This document shows, piece by piece, positions 1 to 63,400 of a stretch of DNA of 64,000 nt (position 1 is its first letter; every line of letters starts with the position of its first letter). The notes under the pieces were generated by a model that was not told the origin of the DNA, searched no databases, and saw only the letters and a program-made list of their open reading frames with translations. The position numbers and the translations under genes were made by a program. This DNA is from Escherichia coli (GTDB lineage Bacteria; Pseudomonadota; Gammaproteobacteria; Enterobacterales; Enterobacteriaceae), in the NCBI RefSeq assembly GCF_044324785.1, contig NZ_CP172127.1, one strand, 5' to 3'.

Positions 1-168
1 CCAATTGATGAGCAAAAGACAATAACGAATTACTTGAGTGCAGCAACGATAAACATTGATTTACTGATTCAAGAGACTGATAAATCGATTGATCTTCTAA
101 AAGAACACCGCACATCGCTGATCAACGCGGCTGTCACAGGAAAAATAGACGTCAGGGAGGCGGTGTAA
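1..168 (+). CDS. hsdS: Type I R-M specificity subunit HsdS, C-terminal fragment (5' end outside window)
   Basis: Frame open from position 1 to TAA at 166-168; translation ends ...EHRTSLINAAVTGKIDVREAV, the conserved C-terminal helix of HsdS; stop overlaps the hsdR ATG (TAATG). Confidence 0.7.
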   Translation, partial: PIDEQKTITNYLSAATINIDLLIQETDKSIDLLKEHRTSLINAAVTGKIDVREAV

Positions 169-3100
169 TGGCTGCACATCATGAAGTGCATTTTGAACAA
201 TATATTACCGAGCAGTTGGTGAACAATGGCTGGAAAGAAGGCCATTCCTGCCACTATGACCAGCAACGCGCCCTTTACCCGCAAGATGTCATGGATTGGG
301 TAAAGGCCACCCAGCCAGATGCCTGGCACAAACTGAATAAACTGCATGGTGTGAATGCCGAGCAGGTGCTGTTGGAGCGTTTGGAAAAAGCCCTCTCTTC
401 CCACAAAGCTGGCAGTAAAACAGGTGGCACCATTAATGTGCTGCGTAAAGGCTTTACCATTGCAGGTTGCGGCACGATTGCCATGGGCCAACGCAAACCC
501 GAAGATGCGCGCAATGAAGAGCGTATAGCCCGTTATGAGCACAACATTTTGCGCGTGGTGCGCCAACTGAAATATTGCCCGACTCGCGAGTGGGAAATTG
601 ACTTGGTGTTCTTTATCAACGGTCTACCCGTTGCCACCGCCGAGCTAAAAACCGATTTTACCCAGTCGCTAGAATCGGCGATTGCGCAGTACAAAGAGGA
701 TCGTCTGCCCGTTGACCCAAAAACCAAGCGTAAAGAGCCGCTGTTAACCTTTAAACGCGGTGCAGTGGTACATTTTGCCATGTCTGATACAGAAATCGCC
801 ATGGCGACCAAACTGGCGGGAGAAAATACCTATTTTCTGCCCTTCAATAAAGGCCATGATGGTTCTACCTCTGATTTGCCCGTACACATCAACTTGCCGG
901 GTGAAGATGGAGAGTATCCGGTCAGCTATTTTTGGCAAGAAATTGCCCAAAAAGATAATTGGCTACGCATTTTCTACAGCTTTGTGTATGTCGAAACCAA
1001 AGAGGTTGCCGATAGCAATGGCAAGGTTGAGCGTAAGGAAACACAGATTTTTCCGCGTTATCATCAGTTAGCCGCAGTCAACAAGATGATTGATGATGCC
1101 CGCCAGAACGGCGCAGGCATGCAGTATCTTTGTGAGCACAGCGCCGGTTCGGGAAAAACCTCTACCATAGCCTGGACGGCCCATGATTTGATTCGTTTAC
1201 GCAGCACCGATGGTAAAGCGGTCTTTAAATCAGTGATCATTGTGACCGACCGCACCGTGCTGGATTCGCAGTTGCAAGATGCGGTGCAACAGCTGGATCA
1301 TCAATATGGGGTGATTAAGGTGATTGATCGCGAAAAGAGCAGCGAGTCGAAATCAAAACAGCTGACTGAAGCGCTATTGACTGGCACGCCGATCATTGTA
1401 GTGACGATTCAAACCTTCCCATATGCGTTAGAAGCGATTCTGACCAATCAATCTTTGGCACAAAGTAACTTTGCGGTGATCATCGATGAAGCACACACCT
1501 CGCAAACAGGCTCTACAGCCAAAGGGTTACGCGCAGCGCTTACTCTAAACCTTAGCCCTCAAGAGTTGGAGCAAATGAGCATTGAGGACATTCTTACTAA
1601 GGTGCAAGAAGCGCGCGCCATGCCCAAGAACGTTTCGCACTTTGCTTTTACGGCAACACCCAAGCACAGCACCAAGATGTTGTTTGGCCGCCCGAAAGAC
1701 CCTAACCAACCAGTGTCAGATGACAATCTTCCTGAATCGTTCCACCTCTACACCCAACGTCAGGCCATTGATGAGGGTTTTATTCTTGATGTGCTGGAGA
1801 ATTACACCCACTACGATACAGCCTACAAAATTGGTGAGAACAATCTGGATGAGAAGCGCGTAGACAGCAAACAAGCTCGCCGCGCGTTGGCGCGCTGGAT
1901 GTCACTGCACCCAACCACGGTCAGCCAAAAAGTCGAATTTATTATTAAGCACTTCAAGGCCAATATCGCTCACCTACTGGAAGGTGAAGCCAAAGCCATG
2001 GTGGTCACATCGGGCAGGCCACAGGCGGTGAAATACAAGCTTGCTTTTGATAAATACATTAAAAAGCATGGTATTGAAGGTATCCAAGCCTTGGTTGCCT
2101 TCTCGGGCAAAGTCCCCGGCAAAGATTTGGGTGATGAAGACAGCCAAGACCCGCTAGAAATTGATTTCGATAAAGAGTACACCGAGTACAACTTAAACCC
2201 AGACACGCACGGGGCTGACCTGCGCCATGAGTTTGAGAAAACCGAATATCGCGTCATGTTAGTCGCCAACAAGTTCCAAACGGGCTTTAATCAACCAAAA
2301 CTGGTTGCCATGTATTTGGATAAGAAAATATCCGATGTAGAAGCGGTGCAAACGCTGTCTCGCCTAAACCGCACCTATCCAGGCAAAGACACAACCTTCG
2401 TGATTGATTTTGTTAACGATCCACAAACCATTCTCAATGCGTTCAAAAAGTACGACAAAGGCGCGCAGCTTAATGAAGTGCAAGATGTGAACGTCATCTA
2501 TGACATCAAAGATATTTTGGATGAACAGAACATATACAACCATCAAGATTTAGAGTTGTTTAAGCAAGCGCGTGGTAAATCGATTCTCGGCCAATCACCT
2601 GACAAAAAGTCACACGCGCACAAGAAACTGCTAGCTGCCACACAACGCCCTACCGATGTGTTCAACGTTAAGCTCAAAGAGCTGGTTGATGCTGCAAACC
2701 ATTGGGATCAGCAATACAACAAAGCGCACCTTGCGGGTGATGAAAAAGCGGCGAACTACGCAGAATCTCAGCGCAGTGATTTCACCAAGCAGCGCGAAGC
2801 ACTAATGCGTTTTAAGTCAGATTTAGCTCGATTTGTGAAGCACTATAGCTATATGGCGCAATTGATTGAGTTTGGTGATCCTGAACTGGAAAACTTTGCC
2901 GCGTTTGCTCATTTGCTATCACGTCGATTGAAAGGGGTAACACCAGAAAACATCGATCTCAGTGCACTGGTACTAGAAAAATTCAAAATCAAATACGACA
3001 AAGAGCCGCTTCCAGAAGCGTTTAATCAGGTACTTGAACCTATCCGCCCCAACTATAACGACCCTGCGGATCGTGAACAGGCATTTCTTGCCGATATCAT

Positions 3101-3404
3101 TCGCCGCCTAAACGAACTGTTTGGCGATGTCGGCGACGAACCCGGTCGCCGAAACTTTGCCAACGGTACTATTACGCGTGTCACCCAAAATCCAATTGTG
3201 GTTGAGCAGATAGAAAAGCACGACAAGTCGATTGCCCTCAAAGGCGACTTGCCGCAAGCGGTGAAGCAAGCCGTTGTGCAGGCTCTGCTGAAAGAAGGTG
3301 ATATAGCCCGAACGCTACTCAAAGACCCACAAGTTATGGCAAGTTATGTTGAGTTGATTTTTGACATGATGAAGCAAGGTGCAGAACAGGCGGCGGTGAA
3401 ATAA
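168..3404 (+). CDS. hsdR: Type I restriction enzyme R subunit HsdR (1078 aa)
   Basis: Long ORF with SF2 helicase motifs (EHSAGSGKTSTIAW Walker A, IIDEAH DEAH box) and N-terminal nuclease region typical of HsdR; immediately follows hsdS. Confidence 0.9.
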   Translation: MAAHHEVHFEQYITEQLVNNGWKEGHSCHYDQQRALYPQDVMDWVKATQPDAWHKLNKLHGVNAEQVLLERLEKALSSHKAGSKTGGTINVLRKGFTIAGCGTIAMGQRKPEDARNEERIARYEHNILRVVRQLKYCPTREWEIDLVFFINGLPVATAELKTDFTQSLESAIAQYKEDRLPVDPKTKRKEPLLTFKRGAVVHFAMSDTEIAMATKLAGENTYFLPFNKGHDGSTSDLPVHINLPGEDGEYPVSYFWQEIAQKDNWLRIFYSFVYVETKEVADSNGKVERKETQIFPRYHQLAAVNKMIDDARQNGAGMQYLCEHSAGSGKTSTIAWTAHDLIRLRSTDGKAVFKSVIIVTDRTVLDSQLQDAVQQLDHQYGVIKVIDREKSSESKSKQLTEALLTGTPIIVVTIQTFPYALEAILTNQSLAQSNFAVIIDEAHTSQTGSTAKGLRAALTLNLSPQELEQMSIEDILTKVQEARAMPKNVSHFAFTATPKHSTKMLFGRPKDPNQPVSDDNLPESFHLYTQRQAIDEGFILDVLENYTHYDTAYKIGENNLDEKRVDSKQARRALARWMSLHPTTVSQKVEFIIKHFKANIAHLLEGEAKAMVVTSGRPQAVKYKLAFDKYIKKHGIEGIQALVAFSGKVPGKDLGDEDSQDPLEIDFDKEYTEYNLNPDTHGADLRHEFEKTEYRVMLVANKFQTGFNQPKLVAMYLDKKISDVEAVQTLSRLNRTYPGKDTTFVIDFVNDPQTILNAFKKYDKGAQLNEVQDVNVIYDIKDILDEQNIYNHQDLELFKQARGKSILGQSPDKKSHAHKKLLAATQRPTDVFNVKLKELVDAANHWDQQYNKAHLAGDEKAANYAESQRSDFTKQREALMRFKSDLARFVKHYSYMAQLIEFGDPELENFAAFAHLLSRRLKGVTPENIDLSALVLEKFKIKYDKEPLPEAFNQVLEPIRPNYNDPADREQAFLADIIRRLNELFGDVGDEPGRRNFANGTITRVTQNPIVVEQIEKHDKSIALKGDLPQAVKQAVVQALLKEGDIARTLLKDPQVMASYVELIFDMMKQGAEQAAVK

Positions 3405-3958
3405 TGAATACTGCGTTTCGGGTTTTACTTACGTTCAATGCAACATCACTACTAGTGATTATCTTTGCGGTACAAAAAGGGTACTCACTCGGATATTTCT
3501 TTGGTGGTTTCGCTTGCTTCGATTGGATAGCAGCACTTCCGAACGCAGTATCATATTTACTCTATTTTCTTATCCCTGTTTTATCGACTGGATTGAGTAT
3601 TTGGCTGAGTAAGTATTTGGGTAAAGACGATTTTAAGGCGGGTGAAGTAGCGAGTATTGAGCATGCCAATAACAGCTTCCTACCAAGTTATTTGGGTTAC
3701 TTTTTCGTGGCGTTGAGCATTGGTAACTGGGAGACATTGTGGTTTGTTTATGGCGTTTTGTTTGTTTTTACTCTCTTATCGCAAGCACTCTACTTTAACC
3801 CATTGTTTTTACTGTTTGGTTATGAGTTTTATAACATTACAACCAAAAACGGAACGGCCATTTTCCTTATTAGCCGAGAGCGCTACAAGAAGCCAGATGA
3901 CATCGAAATATCATTGGCTTATCGAATCAATAATTACACATTTATCGAGCGAGGATAA
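3404..3958 (+). CDS. Multi-pass membrane protein (184 aa), first gene of candidate two-gene defence module (KwaA-like architecture, unverified)
   Basis: ATG overlaps the hsdR stop; 4-5 hydrophobic helices (LLVIIFAVQ, FACFDWIAALPNAVSYLLYFLIPVLSTGLSIWL, YFFVALSIGNWETLWFVYGVLFVFTLL, LFLLFGYEF); visibly AT-richer than hsdR. Confidence 0.6.
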   Translation: MNTAFRVLLTFNATSLLVIIFAVQKGYSLGYFFGGFACFDWIAALPNAVSYLLYFLIPVLSTGLSIWLSKYLGKDDFKAGEVASIEHANNSFLPSYLGYFFVALSIGNWETLWFVYGVLFVFTLLSQALYFNPLFLLFGYEFYNITTKNGTAIFLISRERYKKPDDIEISLAYRINNYTFIERG

Positions 3959-4800
3959 TGATGGACCATGTACTGGCACATATAAAAACTAGAGCAAAAA
4001 AACGCATTTTCAAATTGGTTTCTGATCAATCTCTTTTTGATACCGTCACAATCGACTTAAATGCCTGTATTCCATACAATCCAGACCATAACCTTGACGA
4101 AGACTCATGGTTTAAAATTGAAGACTTTAGTCAAAAAGAGTTTTGTATTGAACTGCTAAAAAAAGACTATGATTCAAAAGACTACGATGACTTAACCAAA
4201 GATAACTTCGCCAAGATCGCCTACTTATTTGCAATTCAAGGTAATGATTTTTACTTTCAAAAAATCACTCCAAGCCTATTCGTAAAACGCAAAACGCTTG
4301 TTTTTGGTGAAGCCGCAGAAATTGAGAAGAGCCAAACACGTTTAGTAATAAACGCCTTACCTGATGCAGTGTACTTCAAAGTGGCCGATACCTTGATATT
4401 CAAAAATCTGGCAACGATCTCGAGCATTTTTAAAGGTATCGATGAGTTGTACAAGGAAGCAACAAAAGAAGAAGTTGAGCAGTTTTTAGATGCACAGTTT
4501 ATAGAGTTGGGTAATGACTACAACGTAGATAGCGTCTCAAAACCTAATAGAAAACGTATTGGCCTTGCTATGGCAACACTTGATGCGATGTCTGCTGACG
4601 ATAAAGCTAACATGCTTGATTATATCGACGGTTACTGCGGTGAACAGAAGCTGAAATTCGATAAAGAAAATCAGAAGTTTGAAATATCTAATGACGATGA
4701 GTTGAAGTTACTGCTTTATGGCATTGAACAACGCTTCTATACGACCCCGTTTGGCAAAGAAAAAAGGCTCGCTAACTCTGTAACCGCTATGGATAAATAA
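3958..4800 (+). CDS. Soluble protein of unknown function (280 aa), second gene of candidate defence module (KwaB/DUF4868-like by architecture only)
   Basis: Start overlaps the upstream stop (TAATGATG); acidic, K/D/E-rich, no hydrophobic segments, no motif I recognise; AT-rich. Confidence 0.55.
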   Translation: MMDHVLAHIKTRAKKRIFKLVSDQSLFDTVTIDLNACIPYNPDHNLDEDSWFKIEDFSQKEFCIELLKKDYDSKDYDDLTKDNFAKIAYLFAIQGNDFYFQKITPSLFVKRKTLVFGEAAEIEKSQTRLVINALPDAVYFKVADTLIFKNLATISSIFKGIDELYKEATKEEVEQFLDAQFIELGNDYNVDSVSKPNRKRIGLAMATLDAMSADDKANMLDYIDGYCGEQKLKFDKENQKFEISNDDELKLLLYGIEQRFYTTPFGKEKRLANSVTAMDK

Positions 4801-4820
4801 TAGCCCATTATCAGTAACAT

Positions 4821-5870
4821 ATGAAGGTTGATTCAATGGCCGATAACATCCCACAAGCTCCTCAAGGTGAGTTTGTTCTTTTCACCAGTGCTGATGGTCA
4901 AACCCGCGTTGAGTGTCGTTTTGAGTCTGACACCTTGTGGCTTTCTCAGGCTGCAATGGCAGAGCTTTATCAAGTTAGCTCTCAAGCAATCACCCAACAC
5001 GTAAAAGCTGTCTATTCTGAAGAAGAGCTTGAGCAAATTTCAACTTGTAAGGATTACTTACAAGTTCAACTGGAAGGTGGCAGAGAAGTAAAGCGAAGCA
5101 TTCGTCACTACAGTCTTCCGGTTATTCTTGCAGTAGGATACCGAGTTCGCTCAACACGTGGCACCCAGTTCCGCCAATGGGCAACCAGAATGTTGCAAGA
5201 ATACCTAATCAAAGGATTCGTCATGGATGACGAGCGCCTGAAAAATCCGCCCATTGGCCATTCTGCTGTGCCAGATTACTTTGATGAAATGCTGGAACGC
5301 ATTCGTGATATCCGAGCTAGTGAGCGTCGCGTTTATCTGCGAGTCAAAGAAATCTTTACCATGGCTGCTGATTACGAGCCATCTAACCAAGAGACCAACC
5401 GCTTCTTCCAAACCATTCAGAATAAGCTGCATTATGCTTGTACGCATATGACGGCTGCTGAGCTTATCGCCAGCCGTGTGGATGCCAGTAAGCCGGATAT
5501 GGGCTTAACCAGCTATAAAGGCGATGAAGTGCGCAAGACAGACGTTACTGTTGCCAAGAACTATTTGCGTGAAGACGAAATCAAAGAGCTTAATCGCATC
5601 GTCAATATGTGGCTCGACTTTGCTGAAGACCAAGCACTGCGTCGCAAGCAGGTATTTTTACAGGACTGGGCCGATAAGCTTGACCAGTTCTTGAGTTTTA
5701 ACGATAGAGATGTATTAAACGGTGCAGGAAAAATCTCCAAGAAAGACGCTGATGACAAAGCGAAATTGGAGTTTGACCGCTTTGCCCAGCAGCGCCGTCG
5801 TTTAAAAGAAGCCGAAGGCGCACGGGCCAATATCGCAGCCCTCAAGGCCATACTAAAAAAAGATAAATAG
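4821..5870 (+). CDS. RhuM-family protein (alternative start at ATG 4836)
   Basis: N-terminal segment LFTSADGQTRVECRFESDTLWLSQAAMAELYQVSSQAITQHVKAVY matches the RhuM family N-terminal region as I recall it; 20 bp downstream of the preceding gene, same strand. Confidence 0.55.
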   Translation: MKVDSMADNIPQAPQGEFVLFTSADGQTRVECRFESDTLWLSQAAMAELYQVSSQAITQHVKAVYSEEELEQISTCKDYLQVQLEGGREVKRSIRHYSLPVILAVGYRVRSTRGTQFRQWATRMLQEYLIKGFVMDDERLKNPPIGHSAVPDYFDEMLERIRDIRASERRVYLRVKEIFTMAADYEPSNQETNRFFQTIQNKLHYACTHMTAAELIASRVDASKPDMGLTSYKGDEVRKTDVTVAKNYLREDEIKELNRIVNMWLDFAEDQALRRKQVFLQDWADKLDQFLSFNDRDVLNGAGKISKKDADDKAKLEFDRFAQQRRRLKEAEGARANIAALKAILKKDK

Positions 5871-5927
5871 CCGATATAGTACAGCCCTGATCTCTAATGA
5901 GTTGAGGGCTGTGTTGTAAGATCATAA

Positions 5928-45108: not shown

Positions 45109-46878
45109 ATGAATGCTGCCCTGACTGAACGACTGGTTTATGTCGCCCGCGCGGCACGTGACGCGGGGCATGGTAAACGCGGCGCAGTATACGACGCTGC
45201 CTGTGCTGAACTTGGCATGTCCCGCGCCACTCTGCTGCGCAGGCTGAAGGAGGTATCTGTGACTGATAAACGCAAAAAACGCGCCGATGCCGGGCGCAGC
45301 GCCCTGACCCGCGACGAAGCCGCGCTGATATCTGCCACACTGCGTGAGGCCACCCGCAAGAACGGTAAGCGTCTCTATTCCATCGCGGATGCAGTGGAAA
45401 CCCTGCGGGCTAACGGCTTTATATCCGCAGGCAGAACAGATGAAACCACCGGTGAGTTTTTCCCGTTGTCCGAAGATGCCATCAGCCGAGCCCTGCGTAA
45501 CTATGGCCTGCACCCGGAACAACTGGATGCCCCTGCGCCGCATACCGAAGTGGCCAGTCTGCATCCCAATCATGTCTGGCAGATTGACGCCTCACTCTGC
45601 ACGCTTTACTACCTGAGCAATGGACATAAAGGGCTGCAGGTGATGGACAGCGCGAAGTTCTACAAGAACAAGCCCGCTAACCTTGCCCGTATCGCCAGTG
45701 ACCGCGTGTGGAGTTACGAGATTACCGACCATGCCAGCGGCTGGATTTACGTTGAGTATGTGACGGGCGCGGAATCAGGTGAGAACCTGTGTTCTGTGCT
45801 TATCAACGCCATGCAGGAGCGTGGCGGCGCAGACGTGCTGCACGGTGTGCCGAAAATACTCTATCTCGACCCCGGCTCGGCAAACACCGCGGGTATGACG
45901 AAAAACATGTGCCGCTCACTGGGCATCGACCTGATAGCGCACAAGCCGCATAACGCCCGCGCCACCGGACAGGTGGAAAAGGCGCGGGACATTATCGAAC
46001 GCAAGCTGGAGCCGGGTCTGAAGTTCCGGCCGGTTCACAGTCTGGAAGAACTCAACGCGCTGGCCGCGAAATGGCGCAGCCACTTTAACGCCACGGCTGT
46101 TCACAGCCGCCACGGTAAAACCCGCACGGATATCTGGCTGAAGATTACTGCTGAGCAGCTGAAAAAAGCGCCTTCCGTTGAGGTATGTCGTGAACTGGCT
46201 GTGGCGGCACCAGAACTCCGCAAAGTCACGCCAAAACTTCGTGTCTCGTTCCGGGGCACTGAATTTGACGTATCAACGGTACCGGGCGTACTGGTTGGTG
46301 AAAAACTGATGATTACCCGTAACCCGTGGCGCAGCGATGTGGCACAGGTGGTTCTGACCGGTGAGGACGGCCACGAGACGTTCTTCCTGGTCGAAGAGGT
46401 CAGAAAGAACGAGTTTGGCTTTGCTGAAGGCGCGGCGGTATTTGGCGAAAGTTACAAAGCCCTGCCGGAAACCCCGGCGCAGATGGCGGCAAAAGAAACC
46501 GAAGCGCTGGTCACCGGTACAGACAACGCCGCAGATGCAGCTGCCGCACGCAAGGCGAAGGCGCTGCCGTTCGGCGGGCGGCTTGACCCGTATAAACATA
46601 TCGACGACACCACACTTCCGGCCTATATGCCGAAGCGTGGTCAGGCCTCTGACGTACGCGGGCCGCGCACTGAACAACGTCCCATGACTTATGTGGAGGC
46701 CGCGAAAGCCCTGCGCGATAAGTTCAGCGCCAACGGCTTTACCTGGACGCTGGAACATTACCGCCAGTTAACGGCACAGTATCCGGACGGCGTACCGGAA
46801 GCCGCACTGGATGAAGTCATGGCCACGCTGACCACGCCGGCCCGCAGCAGCGTTATCAGTATTGTTAACGGCAACTGA
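45109..46878 (+). CDS. Mu-type DDE transposase (A protein)
   Basis: 589 aa with integrase-core region (HVWQIDASL...) followed by the B-like ATPase gene. Confidence 0.8.
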   Translation: MNAALTERLVYVARAARDAGHGKRGAVYDAACAELGMSRATLLRRLKEVSVTDKRKKRADAGRSALTRDEAALISATLREATRKNGKRLYSIADAVETLRANGFISAGRTDETTGEFFPLSEDAISRALRNYGLHPEQLDAPAPHTEVASLHPNHVWQIDASLCTLYYLSNGHKGLQVMDSAKFYKNKPANLARIASDRVWSYEITDHASGWIYVEYVTGAESGENLCSVLINAMQERGGADVLHGVPKILYLDPGSANTAGMTKNMCRSLGIDLIAHKPHNARATGQVEKARDIIERKLEPGLKFRPVHSLEELNALAAKWRSHFNATAVHSRHGKTRTDIWLKITAEQLKKAPSVEVCRELAVAAPELRKVTPKLRVSFRGTEFDVSTVPGVLVGEKLMITRNPWRSDVAQVVLTGEDGHETFFLVEEVRKNEFGFAEGAAVFGESYKALPETPAQMAAKETEALVTGTDNAADAAAARKAKALPFGGRLDPYKHIDDTTLPAYMPKRGQASDVRGPRTEQRPMTYVEAAKALRDKFSANGFTWTLEHYRQLTAQYPDGVPEAALDEVMATLTTPARSSVISIVNGN

Positions 46879-60051: not shown

Positions 60052-62139
60052 TCAGAACTGATAGTTCAGCGACATCCAGTAATTTCTCTCAGGTATCACA
60101 TAACCCGTTGTCGATGCCCCCGTCTGGAAGTAATCACCCGCATAAAGCGTACCACTGCCGGCACGATACAGACTTACGTCACTGTAATCCTTGTTAAGCA
60201 CATTATTCACCGCTGCATTCAGCATCAGTGCATCCGTCACTTTCCACGACATGCCCGCATCCAGTACCGTCCAGGCTTTCAGATATTCACCTTTCTCATC
60301 ATACACTTTCTTCTGTACAGCTGAGAGTGACGAATAATTCTGGGTGAAACGTGGCGTTTTCCCGCGGTAACGGGCACCCAGCCATGATGTCACCTCTTCA
60401 GTAATCTGCCAGTTCAGTTTCGCATTCACCATATGCTCAGGGGTGTAACTCAGTGGTGCACCTTTATTATCCCCATCCCGTTGTTCACTCTGCGTCCAGG
60501 TATAATTCAGAGACAGAGTCACATCCTCTGACAACAGAGGCAGTGTGCCGGCAAATTCCACGCCCTGAGTCCTAGCCTTTCCGCTGTTTGTGTAGCTGCG
60601 GGTATTATCATCAATGGAATAAGATACGATCTTGTTGGAGAATTCTGTCATAAAGCCCGTGATATTGGCGTTCAGACCGGCATGATTATCGTAATACACG
60701 CCCGCTTCATAACTGACACTCTCCTCCGGCTTCAGGTCCGGGTTACCGAGAAGATTCGTACGCCCCTGACCGGACACACCGCTGATCCCCTTATGTAACT
60801 GCCCCATGCTGGGCGCCTTATATCCCGTGGTCACCCCACCTTTCAGCGTCCACGCATCAGTCACATCCCAGACCATATATGCCCGGGGACTGAAGTGTCC
60901 TCCGAACACCTCATAGCGTTCATAGCGGCTACCCGCAGTCAGTGCAAATGCATCCGTGATATACCACTCATCCTCAACAAATGCCGACCAGCTTTTCTGA
61001 CGGAAGGTTTCACCAGTACTGGCGAGAACAACCCCGTCTTTCATGGAGGAGTTCTGATACTCACCACCGACGGTAACCTTGTGTGATTCCCCCAGAGGTG
61101 CAAACAGTAATGAGCTCAGGATAAGATTCGACTCCTTAAGCTCCCTCGGCTGGCCGGCAAGCCCCCATTTATCACGCTGCAGTACGCTACGTACAAGCTG
61201 ACGGCCTTTATTTTCCGTCTCATTCCAGTTCAGAGATGACTTCCAGGCTCCGAAGGTGAATGTATGATCATAGCCTGCTGAAATTTTATTACGCTCATAG
61301 CGCAGGGTGCGATCATAACCGCCCGTCAGACTGCCCAGCTGGCCATCTCGGTTATCATAACGCTGCCGGGCGATATCCATATCAATCCAGAGTACATCCT
61401 TGTCCGTCGCTTTCCAGTCAAGACGACCACCTGCATTATAATTCTGTGATTCCGTGGGATAAGGGATACGCGTAGCTGAGGTGTCGCTCAGTGATGTGAC
61501 CGATGAGCCCTGACGCTGCTGTGTGCTGCCACGTACCTGAAGGCTGAGTGAATCATCCACAAGGGGACCGCTGCTCCAGAAATTAAACTGGCTGCTGTTC
61601 CCCCATTTGTTACTTTCCTGCAGGTTCAGCCCGGCATTAACCGAAGAGCGCCATTTGTCTGCATTCTTTTTGGTGATGATATTCACCACGCCCCCCATGG
61701 CATCAGAGCCGTACAGAGTGGACATGGGGCCCCTGATAATCTCAATACGTTCGATGGCGGCCAGAGGTGGCATAAAACCCGTATTCATGGCAGCATAACC
61801 GTTTGGGGTTACGTCACTGCTCCCGCCCTGACGGACACCATCGATCAGTATCAGCGTATAACTGGCAGGCATTCCGCGGATGCTGATTTCCAGCCCACCT
61901 GTTTTACCCGTACCGCTTTCAACATCCACCCCCTCTACGGATCTCAGTGCCTCCCCCAGATCATGATACTGGCTGGATCGCAAATCCTCCTGGCTGATCA
62001 CTGAAACACTCGCAGCTGCACTGGTTAATTTTTTTTCATAGCCAGACGCCGTGACTACCATCACATCTTCCGCAGCCATACTGCTGACTGAAAACCCGAG
62101 ACAAGGGATGGCTACTGAAGCCAGAGTGGTTACTCGCAT
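60052..62139 (-). CDS. TonB-dependent outer-membrane siderophore receptor, IrgA/Iha-like (695 aa)
   Basis: Signal peptide, plug-domain motifs ([26 protein letters not shown]), C-terminal aromatic residue (..NYQF); Fur box upstream. Confidence 0.8.
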   Translation of the reverse strand: [695 protein letters not shown]

Positions 62140-62188
62140 ATCTTCTCTCCGATTATATTAATCAGAGAGAAGATAAACAAACGCAAGA

Positions 62189-62207
62189 GATAATGAGAAT
62201 GATTTGC
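62189..62207. promoter_or_regulatory. Putative Fur box upstream of the TonB-dependent receptor gene
   Basis: GATAATGAGAATGATTTGC matches the 19-bp Fur consensus GATAATGATAATCATTATC at 15/19 positions, ~50 bp upstream of the start codon. Confidence 0.5.
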
Positions 62208-62451
62208 TTTTGGTTTTTACATAAAAAAGCAAAAAATTACAAAATATTACATAAGGTTCTACTATACCCCGAATTTCAGTTGAGGACGTTCTTTTCTCTA
62301 GGGGAAAGTAACGGATAGCAATCGTTGACGATCCATATCGGATTTTTGCACTATGGGTATTTATCCAATCTTTATCAGTTTCTTGTCCTTGGATATGTTA
62401 ATCATACACTATCGGATATTTCGTACATCAGACAGGTGAATATAATTAATA

Positions 62452-62736
62452 ATGAGGAGTTTTATGGACAATAGAACAATTACTCTGCAGGAATTACTCG
62501 AGTACATGTCAATGCTTCGAGACGACATGAATGCTCTCACGGTTGCATTTTCATATCTGGCTTCATCGCTTCCTAAGGAACAGATGATACAAATACTGGC
62601 ATTCATTCATTTTGAATCAAATAATTCCAGATGGTCTTCAGAACAGCAGAAATCTTTCAAATGGCTAGCATCACTACTGGAGGGCTGTTATACAGTTCAC
62701 ACAAACATTTTTGATATACCATCAAAGAACCACTAG
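62452..62736 (+). CDS. Hypothetical AT-rich orphan ORF (94 aa)
   Basis: ORF in strongly AT-rich DNA with plausible SD (AGGAG) upstream. Confidence 0.3.
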   Translation: MRSFMDNRTITLQELLEYMSMLRDDMNALTVAFSYLASSLPKEQMIQILAFIHFESNNSRWSSEQQKSFKWLASLLEGCYTVHTNIFDIPSKNH

Positions 62737-63059
62737 TACATTATGATACATTCCCTCTGAAATATATTTCTACTTTGAGCGCCTCTGACTTTATGAGGCG
62801 CTTTGTCCAGCAAACCAAACATACTCGCTGGAAACAGAGTAAAGTATTATTATCCCCGATACATCTATATTTTACAACAGCGCATCCATATATTAATTAA
62901 CGATGCAGTTAAGTTCCCCATTCTACCCAATTTACTGTTTTTGTTGTTTGAAAGAAGACTCTCATTAAGTGAGAGCCATCTGTAAGTATCCCGCATAATC
63001 GCTCCATTCATATTTAGAGATCATCCGGAATAATCAATCTGATAACGAAGAAAATCGCT

Positions 63060-63183
63060 ATGCGTAAAGCCCGTATTACTGAGTATTAGATCATCGCTGT
63101 AATTAAATCGGTTGAAACCGGACGAACAATTAAAGATGTTTGTCGGGAAGCCGGTATTTCTGAAGCCACTTACTACATCTATT
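63060..63183 (+). pseudogene. IS3-family OrfA N-terminal remnant with in-frame stop
   Basis: MRKARITEY-stop-IIAVIKSVETGRTIKDVCREAGISEATYYI is the IS3-family OrfA HTH with a premature TAG. Confidence 0.5.
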
Positions 63184-63400
63184 GACTACCTCAGTTTTGC
63201 AAGCACTGATTCTGGTTTTGGATTGTTGCTTACATCTATCCGGCATCAGGAAAACCTGTGCCCAAATAGGGAATCCACACACAATCGCCTCTACAACTGG
63301 ACGACCTCTGAGGCCAGTACAAAAATCAGGTTCCGATTGTGCAGGTGCAACCCGTCACCATTTCTCAGTACGCTGCAACTTTTGCTGAAAGAGATTAACT

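Follow-up and report, generated by a model that had tools for sequence, protein, structure and literature searches.

Composition and arrangement of the tract

We examined an AT-rich tract at 62208-63060 of a 64,000-nucleotide (nt) stretch of Escherichia coli DNA (contig NZ_CP172127.1; the whole stretch is called the window), which lies beside the siderophore receptor and adhesin gene iha and contains one small open reading frame (ORF). A first-pass annotation had placed this tract between a receptor promoter and insertion sequence (IS) remnants and had read it as horizontally acquired AT-rich DNA, and both descriptions held. The tract has a GC content of 35.9%, compared to a mean of 52.2% (standard deviation 5.4%) for 853-nt intervals across the 64 kb. 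Equally low GC was seen in just 0.16% of these intervals, and the minimum of the 64 kb was at 62151. In 300-nt intervals, GC fell from 0.52-0.55 within the receptor gene to 0.36-0.38 at 62100-63150. To the left lies iha (60052-62139, minus strand), to the right homology to IS3-family elements begins at ~62981, and pieces of an integrative and conjugative element (ICE), a prophage and IS elements were recognisable.

The leader and promoter region of iha (62140-62253, minus strand) was 75% identical to the sequence upstream of a related iha in GPEC673, and this homology ended at ~62253. It is followed by an AT-rich joint (62254-62322), which connects the iha module to the prophage fragment, by that fragment with the small ORF, and by AT-rich filler (62811-62980); in DNA searches, joint and filler matched just the 59 genomes that share the tract. 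A terminator scanner called a terminator-like hairpin within the filler (62977-62957, minus strand), which also contains short ORFs. The left-end remnant of an IS3-family element (62981-63176, plus strand) is an orfA fragment with an internal stop codon and shares 85-92% identity with transposase genes of the IS3 family. In RefSeq, 63090-63176 is labelled an incomplete transposase; further rightward come transposase fragments and IS110 and IS630 genes. The exact 961-bp sequence of 62140-63100 was found in 59 genomes, always at ≥99% identity and at full length in 56 of them. One genome, NZ_CP182371.1, matched the tract only as far as window position 62445.

High AT content is a general property of H-NS targets, and the first-pass annotation had proposed H-NS silencing of the tract as foreign cargo, with a small regulator or toxin encoded by its ORF. 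At 36% GC the tract is clearly foreign, as H-NS targets generally are, and from its composition silencing is plausible. A scan for the high-affinity H-NS motif TCGATAAATT was uninformative, with 50 matches in the window against 45 expected, no better than chance.

The 90-aa gene

The frame is open from an ATG at 62452 to the stop codon at 62736, which would encode the 94 amino acids (aa) first reported. The frame stood but the start probably did not. A Shine-Dalgarno sequence, GAGGAG (62454-62459, plus strand), precedes a second ATG at 62464 and sits inside the initial codons of the longer version, all homologues begin at the second methionine (MDN...), and RefSeq annotates 62464-62736 as WP_000370415.1, a protein of 90 aa ('Ybl58' in UniRef). 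Translation probably starts at 62464, and the ATG at 62452 is probably not the start.

The ORF had been called an orphan with no recognisable motif. The second description was correct for Pfam, NCBIfam and PADLOC, in which nothing scored above threshold for the ORF or for 26 family members; weak matches to DUF6887, Cellsynth_D and others were inconsistent across members and were rejected. It failed, as did the first, against PHROG 2411, an uncharacterised family whose hidden Markov model (HMM) profile the protein matched over its full length (117 bits, E 5.6e-34), with residues 1-83 aligned to positions 1-83 of a 90-position profile. Amino acid identity to copies in E. coli lambdoid phages and prophages was 57-67%, and homologues of 30-50% identity were found in phages of Citrobacter, Atlantibacter, Yersinia and Serratia. 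A word-indexed protein search reached only near-identical copies; exhaustive representative and profile searches were needed to recover the family, which comprised ~100 clusters of relatives and was confined to Enterobacterales. There were 169 copies in IMG/VR viral contigs. A literature search on the 90-aa protein, its accessions, PHROG 2411 and ydfR, holin or moron found nothing relevant.

The gene was intact in 80 of 80 IMG/VR viral loci (90 aa in 78, 89 aa in 2). The ratio of nonsynonymous to synonymous substitution rates (dN/dS) between the window and four phage copies was 0.17-0.30 over codons 1-75 and 0.75-0.90 over the last 15 codons; among phage copies it was 0.20-0.39. Because of the low ratio over codons 1-75, we conclude that the ORF is a genuine protein-coding gene of the uncharacterised family PHROG 2411. 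The first-pass annotation had allowed for a spurious ORF conserved in no other genome; the wide conservation seen here instead supports a real one. Compared to the phage members of the family, the window copy lies outside any prophage, has diverged by ~40%, and has an unrelated sequence over its last ~15 residues. The relaxed and unrelated C-terminus is expected from the loss of constraint by the ydfR frame, which overlaps these codons in phages and has been lost in the window.

Prophage origin of the gene

In E. coli lambdoid elements, the gene for a pinholin-type holin is followed by that for the 114-aa YdfR, by the oppositely oriented 90-aa gene, and by a lysozyme or further holin gene. This order was seen in phiSTEC1575-Stx2k, phage Chlobot, the BL21 prophage and strain AVS0935. 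The Qin prophage of K-12 has the order essQ-ydfR-rrrQ with no antisense gene, and its 103-aa YdfR overlaps rrrQ by 4 nt. When the BL21-type prophage was compared with Qin, 472 bp replaced 92 bp between flanks that were 87-90% identical. Within the 472-bp insert lie the ORF with its upstream region and a hairpin, and the insert also encodes the last ~45 residues of the longer YdfR. Since these residues of the 114-aa form come from the antisense strand of the insert, insertion of the cassette appears to have rewritten the YdfR C-terminus. GC content was 42.3% in the cassette, compared to 51.7% in rrrQ, 47.5% in ydfR and 50.2% in the holin gene. The low GC of the tract would be due to this low-GC origin together with the AT-rich promoter and joint DNA around it.

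Window positions 62323-62810 correspond to this cassette plus ~30 nt of rrrQ. Positions 62333-62683 were ~71% identical to prophage DNA annotated as 'hypothetical protein' and 'lysozyme (rrrQ)' in sampled E. coli genomes, and a multiple alignment with three phage or prophage copies extended the homology to ~62323-62810. A sensitive DNA search gave 1191 records whose best match to the tract fell in the 60-80% identity band. At the left end (62323-62352, minus strand) lies what appears to be the dead 5' end of a phage-21-type signal-arrest-release endolysin gene resembling rrrQ. RrrQ residues 2-11 (NAKIRYGLSA) aligned with the window translation SAKIRYGSST at 70% identity, a tblastn match (E 0.67) that is weak alone; the remnant is colinear with the prophage DNA, its ATG is changed, it has a 1-nt deletion, and homology stops after ~10 codons. 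At the right end (62723-62810, minus strand) lies the putative decayed 3' end of a convergent ydfR-like gene, with DNA homology to ~62810. YdfR residues 82-108 aligned here at 41% identity with an in-frame stop (tblastn E 0.23, also weak by itself), and the window ORF list held no ORF on the minus strand of this remnant.

The more distant homologues occupied different places in temperate phages of Enterobacterales. They lay between tail genes M and L in Atlantibacter, between tail genes I and J in Yersinia, upstream of a holin in Citrobacter, beside the terminase genes in one further locus (L008), and in the early region near a RelA/SpoT-like gene in Serratia. Phage-borne copies were always antisense to the adjacent phage genes. 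Those from Sodalis and from a metagenome were chromosomal singletons. The antisense position at varied insertion places suggests moron behaviour, and together with the insertion between genes that are adjacent in Qin and the deviant GC it indicates that the gene is, on sequence criteria, a phage moron. Morons were reportedly defined for the lambdoid phages HK97 and HK022 by Juhala, Hendrix and colleagues. Examples include lambda bor and lom and HK97 gene 15, and those with names encode membrane proteins or lipoproteins that act in serum resistance, adhesion and superinfection exclusion. The present gene resembles HK97/HK022-type morons as an extra gene between neighbours, with lower GC, a candidate promoter and hairpin, independent orientation and varied sites, but its product is predicted from sequence to be a soluble, acidic three-helix protein, whereas the named morons encode membrane or lipoproteins with assigned roles. 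In Serratia ficaria (L018/L019), the homologue lies two genes from a 363-aa RelA/SpoT-domain protein (3245-4336), which may be a toxic small alarmone synthetase.

Candidate expression signals

The region upstream of the gene (62356-62463, plus strand) aligned with the intergenic region between rrrQ and the ORF in prophages and contained blocks of invariant columns. A candidate promoter within the conserved block, TTATCA-16-TATGTT (62372-62399, plus strand), is a weak sigma-70-like pattern match that a stricter scanner did not call. The motif TATCAGGAT-N15-CCCTGGwTATGTT was also found upstream of the Atlantibacter homologue. Attempts by eye to read the block as a sigma-E, sigma-54 or extended -10 promoter were rejected, as the spacings do not fit. 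About 40 nt past the stop codon, a GC-rich hairpin (62777-62803, plus strand) with a folding energy of -16.1 kcal/mol (z -4.0 against shuffled sequences) is a possible weak terminator; its stem is followed by just UUU, and the terminator scanner did not call it. The hairpin was also present in the BL21 prophage copy and was weaker in the Stx2k phage copy. The gene would be transcribed from its own promoter, independently of the late operon and most likely in lysogens; for expression in lysogens, the antisense orientation relative to the late genes is the sole indirect support.

In three unrelated phage settings (L002, ~3845-3870; L010, ~5850-5880; L008, ~5850-5880), strong terminator hairpins on the late strand lay directly upstream of this gene's promoter region. 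The cassette may also carry a late-strand terminator.

The convergent partner gene

In every phage context examined, covering five insertion sites and five genera, a small ORF on the late strand converged on the 90-aa gene and overlapped its 3' end. The partner was 52-71 aa in length or, in E. coli, the C-terminus of the 114-aa YdfR (L005, 3367-3711; L016, 5239-5430; L010, 6261-6476; L020, 2677-2835; L008, 6248-6436; L018, 5251-5430). Partners end with (E/K)R(I/L)TG(S/D)L..P, four of the five small partners have an MTLEQRVEILE-like N-terminus, and two were 38% identical over their full length (E 2e-9). The partner was present in 75 of the 80 viral loci and the overlap was 35 nt in 73 of them. 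Codons of the shared motif varied at synonymous positions between genera, and in Citrobacter the motif lay wholly outside the 90-aa ORF; the motif is therefore selected on the partner protein rather than being a shadow of the other frame. Neither partner matched a toxin-antitoxin (TA) or defence HMM, and the window copy and the plasmid copies described below have no partner.

The pairing suggests a two-gene module. Such a module would be of an unrecognised kind, in which the 90-aa protein made in the lysogen binds and neutralises the late partner, or in which transcriptional interference makes the two genes mutually exclusive; it could serve as a lysogeny/lysis switch or as an addiction-like or exclusion system, and the iha-linked and plasmid copies would then be orphan antidote-like halves kept against related phages. 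We regard this proposal as speculative and rather improbable. Type I TA pairs such as txpA/ratA consist of convergent genes that overlap at their 3' ends. The present pair shares this convergent arrangement and 3' overlap, but here the two partners both seem to be proteins and not small hydrophobic peptides, and the window and plasmid copies lack the partner.

The same arrangement could suggest that the functional product is an antisense RNA which damps leaky expression of lysis genes (ydfR and the holin) from the late operon, as the gene sits inside the lysis cassette and converges on ydfR with the frequent 35-nt overlap. This explanation is very unlikely. Amino acids were conserved while synonymous sites turned over (dN/dS ~0.2), and homologues at 30% identity keep the protein at unrelated sites, among the tail genes and in the terminase region. 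An Rfam scan of 61900-63400 returned only sub-threshold chance matches, and the window holds nothing left to which the RNA could be antisense.

Predicted properties of the protein

The window protein has an isoelectric point of 5.45, compared to 4.3-4.8 in phage copies and an overall range of 4.3-5.6, and a grand average of hydropathy of -0.24 (-0.18 to -0.50 across copies); the negative mean hydropathy argues for a soluble protein. An AlphaFold2 (AF2) model from a 26-sequence alignment had a mean predicted local distance difference test score (pLDDT) of 82 and a predicted template modelling score (pTM) of 0.58, with helices at residues 8-35, 38-52 and 59-83 and a disordered tail. The near-invariant residues L18, L25, A28, F29, L32, T44, E51, N54 and F65 mostly form the hydrophobic core and an E-S-x-N turn. 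The product is accordingly modelled as a small, acidic, soluble three-helix protein.

The first-pass annotation had called for homology and structure searches. Homology led to PHROG 2411, but structure gave no informative relative: Foldseek returned only generic helical matches (best E 2.2 against PDB and 0.22 against BFVD), and a sequence profile search of PDB gave nothing below E 1. Family scans gave no match to helix-turn-helix, Hha/YmoA, PerC-like or other DNA-binding or H-NS-modulator domains. From the size, charge and modelled fold of the protein, and from the lack of catalytic or DNA-binding signatures, we infer that it most likely acts by binding another protein.

These properties bear on the proposal of silenced cargo encoding a regulator or toxin. 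The ORF is real and its family has no assigned function, as that proposal would have it. However, no helix-turn-helix, Hha-like or other regulator family was matched, and neither domain nor fold searches support a regulator. A toxin is unlikely because the protein is soluble, acidic and helical, matches no TA or defence family, has no partner gene in the window and is stably carried alone; no adjacent antidote gene was called at any of 10 loci read, drawn from more than 5000 blocks of public assemblies. The proposal as a whole is unlikely.

The iha allele and its promoter

The product of 60052-62139, labelled iha in RefSeq and containing Plug and beta-barrel Pfam domains, scored 1538.7 bits against the NCBIfam equivalog NF010012 (cutoff 924), which describes a TonB-dependent catecholate siderophore receptor and adhesin. 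This allele was present at ≥99% identity in 59 of 5426 complete E. coli genomes, equal to the number with the tract. Classical iha, as found in O157:H7, uropathogenic E. coli (UPEC) and ST131, was ~86% identical at the nucleotide level and had ~1536 records. In GPEC673, a related iha lies in an apparently intact ICE, between the TIGR03756/03757 genes and the conjugative ATPase gene. In the window, the ICE genes beyond iha are reduced to pseudogenised TIGR03756/03757 and TraU fragments, and the ATPase side has been replaced. The divergent allele thus appears, from gene order, to have been ICE cargo originally, of which an intact ICE form exists.

A Fur-box-like site, GATAATGAGAATGATTTGC (62189-62207), matched 15 of the 19 positions of the consensus and was the sole site in the 64 kb with at least 15 matches. 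Placed 50-68 nt upstream of the iha start codon, it has a counterpart in the ICE version that matched 14 of 19. By its position and match, the iha promoter carries a predicted Fur box. Repression of classical iha by Fur is attributed to Rashid et al. in a review (PMC6313751).

The small ORF showed no sign of direct Fur control: no site of at least 13/19 was found upstream of it in the window or in six homologues. The distance from the Fur box to the ORF is 257 nt. Given this distance and the lack of a good Fur site of its own, there is no reason to assume that the gene is co-regulated with iha. A sigma-70-like match, TTTACA-18-CAAAAT, occurs beside the Fur box at 62216-62245 (plus strand), directed away from iha and to the small ORF. 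Were this promoter active, a divergent transcript with a leader of ~210 nt would start next to the Fur box.

The classical iha islands, including the tellurite-resistance/adherence islands OI-43/48 of O157:H7 and those of UPEC and ST131, likewise have a Fur-box promoter and a TonB-dependent receptor/adhesin gene in an IS-rich setting. They differ in the sequence of iha and in their upstream DNA, which has no PHROG 2411 gene, whereas the window allele appears to be ICE-derived.

Linkage to iha and copies outside phages

The exact protein was indexed in 5131 blocks of public assemblies, and all 10 loci read had the order iha-ORF-IS630. An IS3-family or IS1 element lay between iha and the small ORF in two of the ten, with both genes intact. 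The ends of these elements were ~175 nt upstream of the ORF start, at approximately window positions 62250-62290 (L027, 4597-5825; L028, 5124-5821). Strain SCU-115 shares the iha tract; beyond the island its annotation is not colinear with the window's left portion and was left out of the analysis.

An intact copy of 58% identity was carried outside phages by ~70 conjugative F-type E. coli plasmids. In NZ_CP132984.1 (L004, 42-5267) it lies 298 nt downstream of a gene for a 1549-aa AIDA-like autotransporter and its heptosyltransferase, and is followed by an IS3-family remnant in opposite orientation. The plasmid copy appears from its context to be a second, independent capture outside phage. 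Both the plasmid and the iha-linked captures adjoin an outer-membrane adhesin gene.

The window ORF could be an inert relic of a recent prophage capture that contributes nothing to the host or to iha. The phage genes on both flanks are dead, IS debris and pseudogenes surround the ORF, and IS insertions upstream of it are tolerated; given the ≥99% identity among the island copies, decay has had little time to set in. On the other side, ~40% of the residues differ between the window protein and each phage copy recovered, but the frame is still intact, the conserved core residues are retained and the Shine-Dalgarno sequence has been strengthened. DNA and protein searches found no closely related phage-borne source copy, and an independent copy survives intact outside phage on the F-type plasmids. 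We consider an inert relic somewhat unlikely, though it is the strongest of the alternatives.

Proposed assembly of the tract

The tract is, with good probability, a degraded pathogenicity island junction composed of the ICE iha promoter, a ~480-bp moron fragment from a lambdoid lysis region, filler and an IS3 remnant, with the small gene as a passenger. The Fur-box promoter of the divergent iha would have arrived as ICE cargo. About 480 bp from the lysis region of a lambdoid prophage would have been captured, comprising almost exactly one moron cassette together with the dead endolysin start and the decayed ydfR end. AT-rich filler, then the IS3-family remnant, would complete the junction. 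The moron gene would be transcribed on its own, probably in the lysogen, and its product would most likely act as a binder of another protein, in the interplay of phage with host or of phage with phage, rather than as an enzyme, a DNA binder or a membrane toxin. The window gene would be a passenger that became fixed beside iha.

Several points weigh against this interpretation. The joint (62254-62322) and the filler (62811-62980), ~240 nt together, had no match beyond the 59 genomes. Purifying selection was measured against phage copies and may predate the capture, and the island copies, all ≥99% identical, are uninformative on selection in the present context. The promoter and terminator are pattern-level matches, the latter with a short U-tail, and the proposed protein-binding mode is deduced from size, charge, modelled fold and the lack of catalytic or DNA-binding signatures.

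Other features of the window

Near the left end of the window (168-5870), the gene for the R subunit of a type I restriction system (HsdR, 1078 aa) precedes two ORFs, one of 184 aa and one of 280 aa, and a gene of the RhuM family; the 280-aa ORF had no Pfam match. Positions 3300-4200 have a GC content of 37%, nearly as AT-rich as 62208-63060. A myovirus-type prophage with tail fibre, tape measure and sheath genes occupies ~16000-48000 within the island, with a PhoX gene on one side and IS5/ICE remnants on the other, an arrangement that differs from that of strain SCU-115. It encodes an rve-domain protein (45109-46878), possibly a Mu-like transposase.

Implications

These results suggest that the apparent mystery cargo beside iha is an ordinary island junction, and that its ORF would be best labelled a PHROG 2411 moron protein of 90 aa starting at 62464. 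This iha allele always travels with the moron, and the combination may serve as a marker for this lineage of the island, which occurs mainly in E. coli from poultry and humans. PHROG 2411 itself is common, with ~1200 E. coli complete-genome records having their best match at 60-80% identity; it is uncharacterised and subject to purifying selection. The invariable convergent pairing with a YdfR-like gene seen in phages offers a testable lead to what the two genes do, and so to the role of YdfR (DUF1327), which has long been unexplained.

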